Virus record (IMG/VR): IMGVR_UViG_2541047750_000003
Span: 1-52,473 of that record
Source of the DNA: a virus
Taxonomy: Duplodnaviria > Heunggongvirae > Uroviricota > Caudoviricetes
DNA length: 52,473 nt
Direction: 5' to 3' (one strand)
Translations under genes and position numbers: made by a program
The notes under the pieces: model-generated
What the model saw: only the letters and a program-made list of their open reading frames with translations
Databases searched by the model: none
What the model was told of the DNA's origin: nothing
Shown: in pieces, positions 5,148-42,517 of the stretch
How the letters are laid out: the number at the start of each line of letters is the position of its first letter
How positions within the stretch are numbered: position 1 is the first letter of the stretch

Positions 5148-6071
5148 TTATTGACAGCAAACAATCTCTTTATATGTTTCTTCTACCATGTCGAATACTT
5201 CCGGCCTGTAATAAAAAAATTCAGTGCTACCATCAAACTTAACAGGGAAGTTTATTTTATAGTCACTGAAAGCATCGTGCATTTTGCTTTCTATTTCCTG
5301 CATAATCTCAGTAGGCCCATTCCATGTTTTAACTACCTGTAAATCAGTCAGCCTTACACCTGCCTTACGAGCACTTTTAAATACTCTGTTCCTCCTTTCG
5401 TTCTCTTTTACGCTTACACCAATTTTCATTTGTGTAGGCACTTCAAGATCATCAACCATGATGTAAAGTTTTCCGTTGTAGTGTGATAAAAACCCGTATT
5501 TAGCGCATTTCGGGCAACCGCGCCCGCTCTTAATGTCTCTAGGTTTAGCCGACCACTCATGATCACAAACCTTGCAGCGGCATAATACTTTTGTACTGTT
5601 ATTAACTATTTCAACCAGCACTTCAATATCAGGATTAACCTTAGCAATAGCCGATATTTGTTCTTCATGCGATATTTTTTTGCCTTGCGCTCGTTTTAGC
5701 ACCGCACATTTCTGGCAACCGCTCCCGATCTTAAGGCTTTTAGGTGTAGAATACCACTCATGATCACAAACCTTGCAGCGGCATAATACTTTTATTTTGT
5801 CGCCGGTAATTTCCCCAAGCACTTCAATATCAGGATTAACCTTAGCAATAGCCGATATTTGTTCTTCATGCGATAACTTCATATTCCCAGCGCATTTCTG
5901 GCAACCACGTCCATATTTAATATTGCTAGGTGTAGCCGACCATTCATGGTTACAAACTTTGCAGCGACATAATACTTTTGTACTGTTATTAACAATTTCC
6001 CCTAACACTTCAACATCAGGATTAACTTTCGCGATAGCTGCAACTTGTTCTTCATGTGTTAACTTGCGCAT
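5148..6071 (-). CDS. protein with three tandem zinc-ribbon-like repeats and a C-terminal T5orf172/GIY-YIG-like domain (307 aa)
   Basis: Three ~65-aa repeats each with CRCKVC...GCQKCA (C-x-C-x2-C ... C-x2-C); C-terminal KLYIMVDD...KIG...EFFYY segment resembles T5orf172; AAGGAG RBS. Confidence 0.55.
   Translation of the reverse strand: MRKLTHEEQVAAIAKVNPDVEVLGEIVNNSTKVLCRCKVCNHEWSATPSNIKYGRGCQKCAGNMKLSHEEQISAIAKVNPDIEVLGEITGDKIKVLCRCKVCDHEWYSTPKSLKIGSGCQKCAVLKRAQGKKISHEEQISAIAKVNPDIEVLVEIVNNSTKVLCRCKVCDHEWSAKPRDIKSGRGCPKCAKYGFLSHYNGKLYIMVDDLEVPTQMKIGVSVKENERRNRVFKSARKAGVRLTDLQVVKTWNGPTEIMQEIESKMHDAFSDYKINFPVKFDGSTEFFYYRPEVFDMVEETYKEIVCCQ
5480..6070. repeat. three ~195-bp tandem direct repeats inside the CDS
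   Basis: Long near-identical blocks, e.g. cacttcaatatcaggattaaccttagcaatagccgatatttgttcttcatgcgata at ~5619 and ~5820, with a diverged third copy ~5940-6060. Confidence 0.7.
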
Positions 6072-16489: not shown

Positions 16490-16511
16490 AGTTTACAAAA
16501 TGGCGTCATTG

Positions 16512-16527
16512 TGTGATGAATGTCACA
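16512..16527. promoter_or_regulatory. CRP-consensus-like palindrome TGTGA-N6-TCACA
   Basis: tgtgatgaatgtcaca matches both CRP half-sites; lies between inverted TACAAAATGG motifs upstream of the NinG operon. Confidence 0.35.
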
Positions 16528-16648
16528 TAATGGCGCTTTGCACCTTGTTAGCACGTATCCATTTTGTATACTTCAAGCAAACAAAATGCTCTTTAAAAAT
16601 CCGGCAGCGCTGAAATGCGTAGAAATCACCTGAAAAGGAGAGAGCATT

Positions 16649-16825
16649 ATGCCTTTTGATAATTACCAATGGCATGACGACTATGAACGAGAAAGCGTTA
16701 TGCGTGCAATGTGCAATGTATGCAGCACGAAGAAAGGAGGCTGTAACGAGTGCAACGAATGCTTAGAACATTGGCTAAGGGCCGGACACGCCGAAAGGCT
16801 GAACGAAACAGAGAATCAAAAATAA
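16649..16825 (+). CDS. small Cys-rich (zinc-binding-like) protein (58 aa)
   Basis: MPFDNYQWHDDYERESVMRAMCNVCSTKKGGCNECNECLEHW...; AAAGGAGAG RBS; below track cutoff. Confidence 0.45.
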   Translation: MPFDNYQWHDDYERESVMRAMCNVCSTKKGGCNECNECLEHWLRAGHAERLNETENQK

Positions 16826-16839
16826 TCGGGGTGGTTTTT

Positions 16840-17445
16840 ATGCAAAACCCTAAAAAACCCATAAGACGCCGTTGCAAGTGCTGCGGCGTTTTTTTTGAGC
16901 CTAAATATCATAATCAAACGTGGTGCAGCGATGAATGTCTGGAAGAACTGAAGTTTGACCAGCTATGCCGCGACCGTGAAAAGGCTATGAAGGCTATGGA
17001 ACGGAAGAAACGCCGCGATAGCCAGCGGGAAGAACGCAACCGGAAGCGGAAACAGTTAAATCCGCGCAGCTACTGGATCAAGCAAGTTCAAAACGTATTC
17101 AACGCCTATATCCGCGAACGTGACGCGCGCTTGCCGTGTATATCCTGCGGGACTTACTACGGTGAGCAATGCGGGTGGGATGCGGGCCATTACAGGACGG
17201 TTGCCGCCGCAGGACACCTTCGCTTTAACGAGGATAATTGCCATAAACAATGCAGGCACTGCAACCAGACATTAGACGGAAACATAGGAGGGTATCGCCC
17301 GGCGCTAATTCGAAAAATTGGCCTCGCCATGGTGGTAGCTCTGGAGAACAACAACGATACGCATAAATGGACGATTGCAGAATGTAAGGAGCTAATAAAC
17401 ATCTATCAGGCGAAATTGGACGCCTTAAGGAGAAAGGTAGCATGA
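16840..17445 (+). CDS. ninG: NinG/Rap-like recombination protein
   Basis: Start refined from track ORF 16750; RRCKCCGVFF...WCSDEC and CISCG...GHYRTVAAAGHLRFNEDNCHKQCRHCN match the NinG Cys/His pattern. Confidence 0.7.
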   Translation: MQNPKKPIRRRCKCCGVFFEPKYHNQTWCSDECLEELKFDQLCRDREKAMKAMERKKRRDSQREERNRKRKQLNPRSYWIKQVQNVFNAYIRERDARLPCISCGTYYGEQCGWDAGHYRTVAAAGHLRFNEDNCHKQCRHCNQTLDGNIGGYRPALIRKIGLAMVVALENNNDTHKWTIAECKELINIYQAKLDALRRKVA

Positions 17446-18338
17446 ATAATTGGCATGATATATTTGAATACGACAACGGTTTTTTATATTGGAAGGGAAA
17501 GAAAGGAAAGTGTAACGCTGGTGATTTGGCTGGTTGCATCCATAAAAATAGTGGTTATTGGGTTGTTCGTGTTAACGATAAATTACATAAAGTACATAGA
17601 ATTATATGGGAAATGCATAACGGACCAATTCCGAAAGGATGCGAGATAGATCATATTTGGCACAACAGAAATGATAACAGGATAGAAAATTTACGCCTTG
17701 TTACTCATAAGCAAAACGGAAGAAATCAGGCAAAACCAAAAAATAATAAAAGTGGGCAGCCTGGGGTTCATAAACTTTCTAACGGATACTATAGAGCGGA
17801 AATATGTGTTAATGGTAAAAATGTGTATCTTGGTCAGTTTGATAATTTTGAAGATGCAGTGGATGTCAGAAAAAAAGGAGAAAAAAAATATTGTTTCCAT
17901 GAAAACAATGGTGTAAGCAAGGAGATTTTGATGCGTGAATTTGAATTCACGTTACCCTGGGCACCATCGGTTAATTCTTATTACGGCAACAATAAAAGGG
18001 GTAGTAAGTATGTAACAAACAAAGGCAAGGATTTCCAAAAAAAAGTCAAAGAAATAATAGAATCACTAAAACTTGATCTTAATATTGATTTTAATGTTTC
18101 CGTTTATATATATGTAGCGCCACCTACACTACGCCCACACGATATTGATAATTGCTTAAAAGCAATATTCGATAGTCTTACTTACGCTCATTTTTGGGTT
18201 GATGATAGGCAGGTTTTTAGTCTTAAGGTTGTAAAGTGCCATAAAATAAAAAACGGCCAGATATTCGTAAAAGTGAAAGAACATTCAGGGGTGTTACCTG
18301 ATATTAACGAATATATTCAGAATTATTGGGAGGTGTGA
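17442..18338 (+). CDS. HNH endonuclease (with AP2-like segment) fused in frame to RusA-like Holliday junction resolvase
   Basis: N-terminal half: HNH motif EIDHIWHNRNDNRIENLRLVTHKQN plus GVHKLSNGYYRAEICVNGKNVYLGQFDNFEDA; C-terminal half: RusA-like LPWAPSVNSYYG...HDIDNCLKAIFDSL...WVDDRQV; markedly AT-rich N-terminal half. Confidence 0.6.
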   Translation: MNNWHDIFEYDNGFLYWKGKKGKCNAGDLAGCIHKNSGYWVVRVNDKLHKVHRIIWEMHNGPIPKGCEIDHIWHNRNDNRIENLRLVTHKQNGRNQAKPKNNKSGQPGVHKLSNGYYRAEICVNGKNVYLGQFDNFEDAVDVRKKGEKKYCFHENNGVSKEILMREFEFTLPWAPSVNSYYGNNKRGSKYVTNKGKDFQKKVKEIIESLKLDLNIDFNVSVYIYVAPPTLRPHDIDNCLKAIFDSLTYAHFWVDDRQVFSLKVVKCHKIKNGQIFVKVKEHSGVLPDINEYIQNYWEV

Positions 18339-18340
18339 CA

Positions 18341-18526
18341 ATGAAAAATGAAGTTAAAGATCTGCAAATAGATATTCAGCGCGATGAGCATGATTTAGCT
18401 ACAGTCCGACAAATCCAGGCTTTTCATATGCGCGAATTGCTTGCATTGAAAGAGCTTGAGAAAAAGTTAGTCCAGTCTATTTCTGATCGTAAACAACTTA
18501 TTGCTCGTTACGGGGGGGGGGAATAA
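18341..18526 (+). CDS. hypothetical protein (61 aa)
   Basis: Start refined to ATG after GGGAGGTG RBS. Confidence 0.4.
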   Translation: MKNEVKDLQIDIQRDEHDLATVRQIQAFHMRELLALKELEKKLVQSISDRKQLIARYGGGE

Positions 18527-19248
18527 TGAATTTAGAATCCATTCTGAAATTCCACTTTCCCAAATCACCGCGATTATCAGACGAAAGCCGGGGCACATCC
18601 CCGGATGCGCTTAATACGACTGATGCGCTAACCGCTGCGGGTATGGCGCAATCGCGCGTAGAGCTTGGCTATAGTGCTTTTTTAGGGAAGATGGAGCTAT
18701 CGCAAGCCGAAAAACACAGGGCTGTAGTATTGCTTACAGAGCGTTTAAGAGCTATGGCGAAAGATTACGAATATGTGATGGAATTAAATGAAGAACAACG
18801 CAATGATCTTATTATTCTTGTTGCCGTTTTCGCGTTTCGGGATTATTGCCAAAGCGCCGCGACGGAAAAAACTTGTATGGAGTGCGGCGGATATAAATTT
18901 ACGTTTGACGACTACGGAGAAAAACATCTTTGCAAAAAATGCAAGGGGCATGGAAAGGTTCGCAATCATTGTAAACAATGCAAGGGGCGTGGCGAGATAC
19001 CGGATAAAACAGCCAGCGAAGCGGCGGAAATGCCAGTATTCAAAACGTGCCAGCACTGCGGCGGGCGAGGCTACTCGCGTTTCCCTGTAGATCTTGTCCG
19101 GCAGGCGGTTAATCAGCTTGTTTTTCCGGTAAGCCGATCAACATGGTGGAAGAAATACAGGGTTTTCTATGAAGACGCCATTGCTGAATTGTTCAAAGAA
19201 GAGGCGAGGGCTGATAACGAAATTAAACGAGTTACACGGGGTGAATAA
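18526..19248 (+). CDS. zinc-finger protein with four CxxCxGxG repeats (240 aa)
   Basis: CMECGGYK, CKKCKGHG, CKQCKGRG, CQHCGGRG resemble a DnaJ-type Cys-rich domain. Confidence 0.5.
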   Translation: MNLESILKFHFPKSPRLSDESRGTSPDALNTTDALTAAGMAQSRVELGYSAFLGKMELSQAEKHRAVVLLTERLRAMAKDYEYVMELNEEQRNDLIILVAVFAFRDYCQSAATEKTCMECGGYKFTFDDYGEKHLCKKCKGHGKVRNHCKQCKGRGEIPDKTASEAAEMPVFKTCQHCGGRGYSRFPVDLVRQAVNQLVFPVSRSTWWKKYRVFYEDAIAELFKEEARADNEIKRVTRGE

Positions 19249-19448
19249 TGGATAAGATGGAAATAAACGATCAGTTTGCCGTTATTTTGTTCGAAGATAA
19301 AACAGGCGGCGCATGGTGTAAGAAAGTCACTGGTGCAGAAGCGCGTTTGGTGTTGGGTATGGCAAGCGCGTTAAATGATGGTGAATTGCCAGCCGTGCCA
19401 ATTGAGCCAGTTCATATTTACGGACGGAGTAACGACAATGAAGCCTAA
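19248..19448 (+). CDS. hypothetical protein (66 aa)
   Basis: ORF, ATGA coupling. Confidence 0.35.
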   Translation: MDKMEINDQFAVILFEDKTGGAWCKKVTGAEARLVLGMASALNDGELPAVPIEPVHIYGRSNDNEA

Positions 19449-19707
19449 ATTAAAGGAACATATATTTGCAAAGCTGGTTAATGACCTGACATTATCTGCG
19501 CGGTTGTGTCGTGATACGCAACAATTAAGGGCGTGGATAGCAAGGGATTTAAGAAAATATATTGAACCAGGCAGGCCAGGCGGAGAAATCACGATGGACG
19601 AAGCCATCAAGCGCCGTTCGGCTGAATGGTCAGTAAGTAATACAGGATTAACCGGATACATCGAAGGCTATAACGACTGTTTACAGGATCATGGCGATGG
19701 CAAGTAA
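19438..19707 (+). CDS. hypothetical protein (89 aa)
   Basis: Start refined to MKPKLKEH (track ORF 19375..19707). Confidence 0.4.
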   Translation: MKPKLKEHIFAKLVNDLTLSARLCRDTQQLRAWIARDLRKYIEPGRPGGEITMDEAIKRRSAEWSVSNTGLTGYIEGYNDCLQDHGDGK

Positions 19708-41825: not shown

Positions 41826-41852
41826 CCCCGCGCGAAGCGGGGTTATTATTAT
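41826..41852. terminator. terminator hairpin at convergent junction
   Basis: ccccgc-gcgaa-gcgggg followed by TTATTATTATT. Confidence 0.5.
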
Positions 41853-41965
41853 TCCATTTCCATTAATGCTATATTTTCCGCTATCGTTTTCCAGTCCAGA
41901 TCTACAGCATGAACACCAAATACTATCAATCCCATTGCGATTAGTGCTAAAACTTCGATTTTCAT
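41849..41965 (-). CDS. small hydrophobic-N-terminus protein (38 aa), last gene of minus-strand island
   Basis: MKIEVLALIAMGLIVFGVHAVDLDWKTIAENIALMEME; GTGAGG RBS. Confidence 0.35.
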   Translation of the reverse strand: MKIEVLALIAMGLIVFGVHAVDLDWKTIAENIALMEME

Positions 41966-42056
41966 AATCAACCTCACTTAATTAAGAAAGGCATAAACGA
42001 TGGCAATCGCGCCAGCCACTACCAAAACATTTCGATCACTTCGTCTACTTTATTGA

Positions 42057-42260
42057 TTAAGGTAACTCCACTTCGTTAAATGTAACAAGCACCCCTTGAT
42101 TTTCTTTATTTATAATTATGAAGGCATTAATTGAAGGCAGACATCTTTCCACGTGGTAAACGTCACCAATATCTAAACTGTAATATTCTGTTAATTCTCT
42201 ATTGTTCCCTTTAGCAAAACCCGTAAACCTAACCTTTTTTTGACCGTCGTACTTTAACAT
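42057..42260 (-). CDS. hypothetical moron protein (67 aa)
   Basis: Track ORF in minus-strand island. Confidence 0.4.
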   Translation of the reverse strand: MLKYDGQKKVRFTGFAKGNNRELTEYYSLDIGDVYHVERCLPSINAFIIINKENQGVLVTFNEVELP

Positions 42261-42268
42261 ATACAGTC

Positions 42269-42517
42269 CTATAGGTTATCACGCAGATAATTAACGCCTT
42301 TGTCAGTGACGAATGAGTGATTAACCTGGTTTTCATCCGTCATGATGATGAATAACTTTTCCTGTAGGTATTTCGCTTTAGGGTACAGCGTTAAGCAGAC
42401 CTGGTACAGTATCCCGCGCTCAATCAGCAAATCAATAAATTCGTGTTCATGATAACCGATAAGGCGGGCGGCCTGTTTCAACGTGTACACATAATCCCCG
42501 TGATTACGCCGCGCCAT
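42269..42517 (-). CDS. hypothetical moron protein, possible HTH (82 aa)
   Basis: AAGGTGGA RBS; YTLKQAARLIGYHEHEFIDLLIERGIL is HTH-like. Confidence 0.45.
   Translation of the reverse strand: MARRNHGDYVYTLKQAARLIGYHEHEFIDLLIERGILYQVCLTLYPKAKYLQEKLFIIMTDENQVNHSFVTDKGVNYLRDNL

Follow-up and report, generated by a model that had tools for sequence, protein, structure and literature searches.

An HNH-AP2 gene and a complete rusA gene in one reading frame at a probable homing site in a phage related to coliphage mEp021

The window analysed here, the whole 52,473-nucleotide stretch of virus record IMGVR_UViG_2541047750_000003, contains between ninG and the antiterminator gene Q a single open reading frame (ORF) of 298 codons, encoding 298 residues (17442-18338, plus strand), that joins an HNH endonuclease to a RusA-type resolvase. 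In public records this ORF is labelled "HNH endonuclease" or "RusA family endonuclease", and either label conceals one half. We examine its two halves, the junction between them and the alleles that occupy the same site in related phages. The ORF is probably a pair of complete genes that share a reading frame, the first a free-standing HNH-AP2 homing endonuclease gene (HEG) and the second a rusA allele that travels with it.

Results

The ORF and its genomic setting

The ORF lies in a nin-type region in which a DNA methyltransferase gene, a NinF-like gene and NinG/Rap precede it and a small conserved ORF and the Q antiterminator follow it (Table 1). Its start codon overlaps the ninG stop codon (ATGA). 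The closest phages to the window are temperate coliphages of the mEp021 group (mEp554, mEp013, mEp515, mEp021, mEp044, mEp010 and MagusPhagus), and the window ninG, whose homologues are annotated at 201 residues, is 94% identical in nucleotides to that of mEp554. The Shine-Dalgarno (SD) sequence AAGGAG in the 3' end of ninG also precedes the rusA ATG in mEp554; it appears to serve rusA in relatives without a HEG, and here would be used by the HNH ORF.

The frame contains the motif EIDHIWHNRNDNRIENLRLVTHKQN at residues 68-92, the motifs DIDNCLKAIFDSL and WVDDRQV, and, beginning at residue 164, MREFEFTLPWAPS. The PHROGs families HNH endonuclease (phrog_99, E 4e-63) and RusA-like (phrog_34, E 1.6e-31) both match it. 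ORF analysis, Pfam and fold comparison agree with the original prediction of one uninterrupted frame holding an HNH motif, an AP2-like segment and a RusA-like domain. Pfam gives only HNH_3 and RusA, with no Hint or splicing domain, which argues against an intein or an intron-encoded enzyme; Rfam found no intron or other RNA at E<=1 across 16500-19500. A scan for promoters and terminators showed no enrichment of sites.

Table 1. Features of the ninG-Q region, in window coordinates
Feature	Positions	Strand	Evidence
ninG/rap, junction-specific His-Me nuclease, left flank	16840..17445	+	Pfam NinG E 5.6e-66
SD sequence AAGGAG within the ninG 3' end	17427..17432	+	Sequence
Probable foreign cassette, the 298-codon ORF (HNH-AP2 gene and linked rusA allele)	17442..18338	+	Composition, breakpoints, identity steps
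Predicted HNH-AP2 homing endonuclease coding part, complete, codons 1-163	17442..17930	+	phrog_99, homologue C-termini, AlphaFold (AF2) model
HNH_3 catalytic core, residues 50-94	17589..17723	+	Pfam E 8e-21, conserved residues
AP2-type DNA-binding domain, residues 109-149	17766..17888	+	Model, Foldseek; Pfam AP2 sub-threshold
Out-of-frame TAA right after the Gly157 codon, probable vestige of the HNH stop	17914..17916	+	Frame analysis, allele L035
SD sequence AAGGAG, 6 nucleotides upstream of the internal ATG	17919..17924	+	Sequence
Linked rusA, complete RusA resolvase (135 residues, codons 164-298), internal ATG to TGA, divergent AT-rich HNH-linked allele	17931..18338	+	
Small conserved ORF (phrog_18514), right flank; homology to relatives resumes here	18341..18526	+	
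Q-type antiterminator	18526..19248	+	Pfam Antiterm E 1.6e-29, phrog_127 E 2.7e-78

The two halves each resemble a complete protein

The C-terminal 135 residues appear to be a complete RusA, with predicted resolvase activity. Pfam RusA (PF05866) matches residues 173-278 (E 6e-12, 46.7 bits against a cut-off of 22.8), and the product aligns to residues 2-116 of E. coli RusA (1Q8R, E 1.7e-21), beginning one residue after M164. Certain Asp and Lys residues of RusA have catalytic roles, and equivalents of Asp70, Asp72, Lys76 and Asp91 are all present, hDiDnclK and wvDD standing opposite rDlDnlqK and wlDD of 1Q8R; the D70N mutant 2H8C marks the position in this alignment. M164 itself aligns with Met-1 of the free RusA of mEp554, mEp021, mEp044 and MagusPhagus. 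The linked allele is nevertheless far from the rusA resident at this site in mEp phages (47% amino acid identity; 232 of 403 nucleotides, or 58%), and synonymous sites between the two are saturated, with a proportion of synonymous differences (pS) of 0.82.

The N-terminal 163 residues are predicted to form a full HNH-AP2 endonuclease belonging to HNH_3/His-Me finger group 2. Residues 50-94 match Pfam HNH_3 (PF13392) at E 8e-21, with 73.9 bits where the cut-off is 24.8, and D70-H71, N83, N92 and N95 of its beta-beta-alpha-metal motif are all present; across 100 homologues, H71 and N95 never vary, and conservation of D70, N83 and N92 is at least 90%. An AlphaFold model of this half, computed with the 100 homologues, has a predicted local distance difference test score (pLDDT) of 94, and its confidence drops solely in the last ~10 residues. 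The best match to the model in the PDB, by Foldseek, is I-HmuI (1U3E, E 7.5e-4, probability 1.0), and D70-H71 pairs with the D-H of that enzyme in the alignment. The next matches are plant AP2/ERF domains (7WQ5, 7ET5 and 1GCC), which fall on residues 109-149, modelled as beta-beta-beta-alpha; 1GCC fits with a root-mean-square deviation of 0.9 A over 49 columns. A C-terminal AP2 DNA-binding domain, noted earlier from the letters as an AP2-like segment, is confirmed at the level of the modelled fold, even though the segment alone stays below the Pfam AP2 threshold (E 0.055, 14.2 bits against 33.3), which 48 of the 100 homologues pass. HNH_3 proteins with AP2 domains are a recognised class of homing endonucleases (PMC5714182, PMC10448857). 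The C-termini of 180 free-standing homologues of 150-185 residues project onto query residues 158-163, most often 158, and the usual ending is KYGFH(E/P)NHG plus 0-5 residues, where the window reads KKYCFHENNG-VSKEIL-M.

The whole ORF resembles a foreign cassette

The GC content is 0.340 in the HNH half and 0.342 in the RusA half, compared with 0.494 in ninG and 0.467 in Q (window mean 0.456, standard deviation 0.038), and third-codon-position GC (GC3) follows the same division, at 0.28, 0.30, 0.545 and 0.45, respectively. By windowed GC the whole ORF is the lowest-GC stretch in the window, about 3 standard deviations under the mean. The original prediction had described the first half as AT-rich against its flanks; the low GC of that half stands, but the RusA half is equally AT-rich, and the ORF is uniformly low with no compositional contrast between its halves. 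Homology to the mEp phages runs at 94% through ninG, ends exactly at the rusA start (immediately after GCATGAA) and returns, at 90%, with the rusA stop and the start of the small ORF. Between these breakpoints the relatives have a rusA of 408 nucleotides and the window has 897. From the breakpoints, the divergence and the shared low GC we conclude that the HNH gene and its linked rusA replaced the resident rusA as one unit, from ATG to stop, and that the entire segment would be a foreign cassette.

A phage contig (L006) shows the same limits. Its cassette is 97-100% identical to that of the window and the adjoining flanks are 82-89% identical, identity rising at one cassette end from 0.82-0.88 to 0.97-1.0 and falling at the other to 0.85-0.89; synonymous divergence (dS) is 0.025-0.035 in the cassette and 0.46 in ninG. 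The cassette thus behaves in these alignments as a discrete unit of exchange with ends at its boundaries, a pattern that does not by itself prove endonuclease-driven movement. Nuclease genes tend to sit at boundaries of exchange (PMC10448857), and the cassette ends fit this tendency.

Alleles at the ninG-rusA site carry graded foreign tracts

The comparison with rusA loci lacking the insert, proposed in the original prediction, places a free 135-residue rusA in this slot in close relatives: in seven of seven related phages ninG directly adjoins a 408-nucleotide rusA with no HNH gene. Among IMG/VR loci with ninG and a resident-type rusA, 42 of 44 are empty and two carry HNH alleles (L035 and L054); because resident-type RusA was the query, this survey under-represents alleles whose foreign tracts are long. 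In E. coli strain N921 the site holds a further HNH allele, the sole such case among 5,426 complete E. coli genomes; of the 34 matching genomes in that set, only N921 has an HNH gene there and none has the window cassette. A relative of the N921 allele, 75% identical to it, is present on three metagenome contigs (L018-L020). The HNH alleles of the window, N921, L018, L035 and L054 are 48-52% identical in pairs (75% for N921 and L018), and all five are low in GC (0.34-0.39) and lie between ninG and rusA. Judged by these comparisons, the ninG-rusA junction is probably a homing hotspot with at least five diverged HNH alleles, although homing activity itself is something that we infer.

The alleles differ in where the HNH frame ends and in how much of the adjoining rusA is foreign. 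In L035 the HNH ORF ends with TAA 13 nucleotides before the rusA ATG, and in L054 a TGA overlaps that ATG (ATGA); neither has a foreign rusA tract. The HNH stop of N921 lies 47 nucleotides inside rusA, out of frame, and the tract covers ~48 nucleotides (56-58% identity, compared with 90-98% elsewhere). In L018 the stop is 44 nucleotides inside rusA and the tract reaches ~298 nucleotides, after which the gene is 100% resident-type. The window, where all 405 nucleotides are foreign, has no HNH stop, the HNH frame being the rusA frame; it alone among these alleles reads through into rusA. The same continuous frame in related phages, which the original prediction had named as the mark of an ancestral two-domain protein, is not what was found, since the related alleles are separate HNH and rusA genes.

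The tracts share a fixed left boundary at the rusA ATG and vary at the right end, which points to co-conversion during the repair of a break that lay within or close to the 5' end of rusA. By analogy, these graded tracts would correspond to the co-conversion tracts of intronless homing, in which the HEG is mobilised together with flanking DNA (PMC2790892). In the variant P0133 the ending is ...NYWGGEQ, suggesting a crossover immediately ahead of the stop.

An independent parallel, unrelated to these alleles, is found in Vibrio phage 1.176.O, where an HNH gene of the same family, 44.5% identical to the window HNH, lies inside the 5' end of rusA. Its product ends KYGFHENHGRG, and its TAA overlaps the rusA ATG. 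A 29-nucleotide stub of the old rusA start remains upstream of the HNH gene, the insert supplies recoded codons 1-17, and homology to HNH-less relatives, which are 97% identical, is restored from about rusA codon 18. The rusA-linked HNH proteins are neither a clade nor mutual nearest neighbours, which implies that the 5' end of rusA was invaded more than once. The nearest relatives of the window-type HNH (P0004, P0005, P0013 and P0015) are all at other loci, a scatter that would be expected of HEGs.

Other candidate parallels were set aside. The "HNH endonuclease" genes beside RusA in ST64T and ENT47670 are YbcO/HK97 gp66-like and not HNH_3, and in Klebsiella phage Kp4856-1 the HNH-AP2 gene is downstream of rusA, a different site. 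The order in Kp4856-1 (L009 2094-3520) is a YbcO-like His-Me nuclease, RusA, the same-family HNH-AP2 gene and Q.

The junction has a probable displaced stop and a likely internal start

There is no true linker between the halves: six residues separate the natural HNH C-terminus from RusA Met-1. Only frame 0 crosses the junction, and the other frames stop at 17900-17902, 17914-17916 and 17929-17931. The window reads GGT G TAA GC AAGGAG ATTTTG ATG where L035 reads GGT AAG TAA GGAG...ATG with its TAA in frame, and the out-of-frame TAA of the window falls where most HNH homologues end. The simplest reading is that a change of 1-2 nucleotides probably displaced the HEG stop out of frame. Once displaced, no further stop would be met because the HEG frame is also the rusA frame.

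The linked rusA retains a start of its own, with the consensus SD sequence AAGGAG at a spacing of 6 nucleotides from the ATG at 17931. By sequence it would be stronger than the SD sequences of those alleles whose two genes might be linked through termination and re-initiation. Over 531 nucleotides, the E. coli isolate GCA_017680545.1 differs from the window only by CAG to TAG at HNH codon 132, and its rusA and start region are intact, rusA being called there as a separate 135-residue gene. Because the HNH frame is interrupted at codon 132, RusA in this isolate can come only from the internal start. The earlier suggestion that an internal ATG could give free RusA thus gains from the Met-1 alignment, from the SD spacing and from this variant, and internal initiation is the likely source of the enzyme. 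RNA folding around the internal start was non-significant (z = -0.75).

The read-through does not stem from faulty assembly: five other independent assemblies (from ENA, Logan, NCBI and IMG/VR) have the same junction, and NCBI lists the exact 298-residue protein for several E. coli isolates. An A7 run (17870-17876) and an A8 run (17881-17888) lie in the 3' coding part of the HNH half, and a +1 or -1 slip there would reach the stops at 17900-17902 or 17914-17916 and yield an HNH-only protein of normal length.

The fused frame is confined to one cluster of close variants

The single-ORF architecture is confined to one 90%-identity cluster of 19 members, at least 12 of them 298 residues long. An exhaustive HMMER scan of 1.84 billion protein representatives gave a full-length match only to the cluster representative (P0001, 98% identical), and none of the other 149 top matches has a RusA part. 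Eleven members that were compared differ from the window protein at no more than 9 of 298 residues, with 10 variable sites in each half. Because the members are so similar, the unbroken frame says little about selection and may reflect recency. In the HNH half, the window and L006 differ by 4 non-synonymous and 3 synonymous changes, a ratio of non-synonymous to synonymous divergence (dN/dS) of about 0.3 from 7 changes. A genuine two-domain family would keep the same ORF and a conserved linker in diverged relatives, and this pattern was absent. A functional long form is possible, but nothing in the data requires it.

Discussion

We favour an account in which the HEG landed at the rusA start codon and took over the original ribosome-binding site and ATG of rusA, while its own 3' end would carry a replacement start region for the gene. 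Break repair would then copy the HEG and a variable length of the donor rusA, and in the window this tract would span all of rusA, leaving the HNH gene and its linked rusA as one AT-rich foreign cassette. With the HEG frame coinciding with that of rusA and the HEG stop displaced, translation would run from 17442 to the rusA stop. Functional RusA would most likely be made separately, from the internal AAGGAG-N6-ATG at 17931, and the 298-residue HNH-RusA protein would be a by-product. The domain content, the breakpoints, the presence or absence of the HNH gene, the graded tracts and the geometry of the frames are observed; endonuclease activity, cleavage in the 5' region of rusA, internal initiation and the way in which the stop was lost are predicted or deduced. 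The earlier interpretation is partly supported: it was right in kind, in placing a mobile HEG at the 5' end of rusA, where relatives are empty, and in taking the internal ATG as the true RusA start, and wrong on the origin of rusA, which was imported as well (58% nucleotide identity).

Several observations weigh against this account. There is no gradient of divergence along the linked rusA relative to the resident gene, and no free-standing copy of the linked allele, nor any RusA more than 47% identical to it, was found in phages, IMG/VR, GTDB genomes or the 1.84 billion protein representatives; the scan of GTDB genomes gave nothing and that of IMG/VR just an identical copy. (A word-indexed search with the RusA half returned two distant matches and missed the query's own cluster, and is uninformative.) The region is generally mosaic, other blocks shared by the window and L006 being also about 97-99% identical, so the cassette could have moved by ordinary modular recombination instead of homing. 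The rusA-linked HNH proteins form no clade and so give no support to a shared target specificity, and the predicted endonuclease may be inactive. Finally, at least 12 members retain the 298-codon frame with polymorphism even in both halves; the HNH half shows no obvious decay, and the long protein may have a role.

The strongest rival, possible though clearly the less probable, is that the HEG is a decaying, inactive remnant, its lost stop being the onset of degeneration, and that the cassette persists and moves only by ordinary mosaic recombination and because it is linked to a functional rusA. HEGs go through rounds of invasion and decay, the TAG at HNH codon 132 is a nonsense allele, near-identical blocks recur in a mosaic background, and non-synonymous changes slightly outnumber synonymous ones in the comparison with L006 (4 to 3). 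Frameshifted or truncated HEGs have also been noted elsewhere (PMC10448857). Against this, no catalytic or conserved residue has been lost, the model folds with high confidence, dN/dS is about 0.3 and not 1, and the HNH half is no more polymorphic than RusA, although the counts are too small to decide.

A selected bifunctional HNH-AP2-RusA protein of 298 residues, for example a tethered nuclease-resolvase or a heterodimer with the short RusA, we regard as improbable. Phages commonly make nested long and short products in one frame (lambda C/Nu3 is one example), the frame is intact in at least 12 cluster variants, the catalytic residues are intact in both halves, and the adjacency of HNH and rusA recurs in several lineages. 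The architecture is, however, limited to the one cluster, so that retention of the frame reflects recency; in every other allele at the site, and in the Vibrio case, the two genes are separate and a stop lies at or close to the rusA ATG; no linker joins the halves; and a strong internal SD sequence is kept, with a nonsense allele in one isolate. A marginally less probable form of the idea gives the long protein a benefit, the coupling of a sequence-specific HNH-AP2 nuclease to a resolvase so that break and resolution are linked and inheritance of the cassette is favoured. RusA acts as a dimer, and if such a chimera, selected for efficient homing, were real the long form could pair with itself or with the short RusA; HNH genes recurring upstream of rusA, and translationally coupled to it, would then signify functional cooperation and not target choice alone.

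Insertion of an AT-rich HEG into an otherwise unchanged resident rusA, the version first proposed, describes L035 and L054, whose rusA is fully resident, and N921, with 48 nucleotides altered. It is refuted for the window, and thus very improbable there, by the composition of the RusA half (GC 0.342, GC3 0.30) and its identity to the resident gene (58% in nucleotides, 47% in amino acids, pS 0.82), against 90-94% identity in the flanks. The concealment of a real stop codon by an error of sequencing or assembly, for which the A7 and A8 homopolymers 40-60 nucleotides upstream of the junction might be blamed, is effectively refuted by the same junction in the five other independent assemblies, by the 298-residue protein from multiple NCBI isolates and by the conserved KKYCFHENNG read in frame 0 past the A-runs.

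Returning to the reading of a HEG with a co-travelling rusA, the locus can be set beside known systems. Lambda C/Nu3 and T7 4A/4B are nested in-frame pairs in which a short product from an internal SD-ATG shares the C-terminal part of the long one; those pairs are conserved and functional, whereas the nesting here is in one recent lineage and looks accidental. Compared with RusA of E. coli DLP12 and phage 82 (1Q8R, 2H8C), the linked product aligns over its full length with the catalytic Asp and Lys residues conserved, and as in lambdoid phages the gene is upstream of Q in a nin-type region. It differs in a 15-residue C-terminal tail common only to RusA of the mEp type, and from other RusA in being at most 47% identical, AT-rich and never found without the HNH gene.

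The HNH half shares with known HNH-AP2 HEGs (the I-HmuI lineage and the "IPA-HNH" of ICP1) an N-terminal HNH_3 core, a C-terminal AP2 domain and a length of about 160-175 residues, together with low GC, variable presence among close relatives and a position at exchange boundaries (PMC5714182, PMC10448857). Here, by contrast, the target would be the rusA start in mEp021-like coliphages, and with no in-frame stop the HEG reads into its target gene. The intronless homing of T4 seg and mob genes is similar in that a HEG between or beside conserved genes (mobE, for example) is mobilised with its flanks in variable tracts (PMC2790892). T4 homing has been shown experimentally and ours is deduced from sequence, and the present case concerns a temperate phage with at least five diverged alleles for one site. 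The ShiLan element, an HNH gene in a phage methylase ORF (PMC11855218), likewise leaves one uninterrupted host-gene frame annotated as a single long ORF, except that the ShiLan HNH is in a different frame inside the host gene and the present one is in the same frame before a complete host gene.

The exact protein is already public under generic names, and its unusual feature is the stop-less HNH-rusA junction. Our literature search found no description of a HEG at rusA, and the mEpimmI genome paper makes no mention of HNH, RusA or NinG. Reading the ORF as a HEG with a nested rusA averts mis-annotation and a false claim of a new fusion enzyme. In this reading the locus would preserve, in compact form, the natural course of homing among temperate gut coliphages, in which homing endonucleases have received little study. 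A single site has at least five diverged HEG alleles, whose foreign tracts measure 0, 48, about 298 and 405 nucleotides, and an independent parallel exists in a Vibrio phage. With mEp phages in culture, it offers an experimental system for target choice, for co-conversion and for how HEGs preserve expression of the gene they invade.

Additional observations

NinG/Rap and RusA place two junction-resolving nucleases side by side at 16840-18338, as they do throughout the mEp021 group, and with the HNH domain three nuclease domains stand in a row; NinG is itself a His-Me finger protein (PMC5714182). Downstream, the small ORF has a G10 run (18512-18521) at its 3' end, immediately ahead of the Q start, where relatives have G5; the alignment shows three extra G, and the run adds one codon (...RYGGGE before the stop in the window). 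The run may be prone to slippage, or it may be a homopolymer error of sequencing.

A segment of ~235 bp, low in GC (0.38) and with an ORF of ~78 residues, lies between rusA and the small ORF in E. coli N921 (L005 3026-3260) and mEp044 (L003 2596-2832), as a further variable insert beside rusA, and is absent from the window. Two HEG-less IMG/VR relatives, L051 (~924-1490) and L056 (~924-1442), have an HNH_3 homologue (39-42% identity) ~1 kb upstream of the junction, which points to a further candidate HEG site in the region.

Elsewhere in the window, low-GC patches (0.355-0.375) occur at ~26400-27300 and ~41850-42450, the former just upstream of an Sf6-like small terminase gene (27285-27800) and with no convincing ORF of at least 70 residues. 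Another low-GC patch holds a 307-residue ORF (5148-6071, minus strand) with three DUF4379/CapR-homology zinc-finger repeats and a weak T5orf172/MUG113 (GIY-YIG-like) match at its C-terminus. By these matches it looks like a second, unrelated HEG of the T5orf172-CapR type known from ICP1 (PMC10448857).

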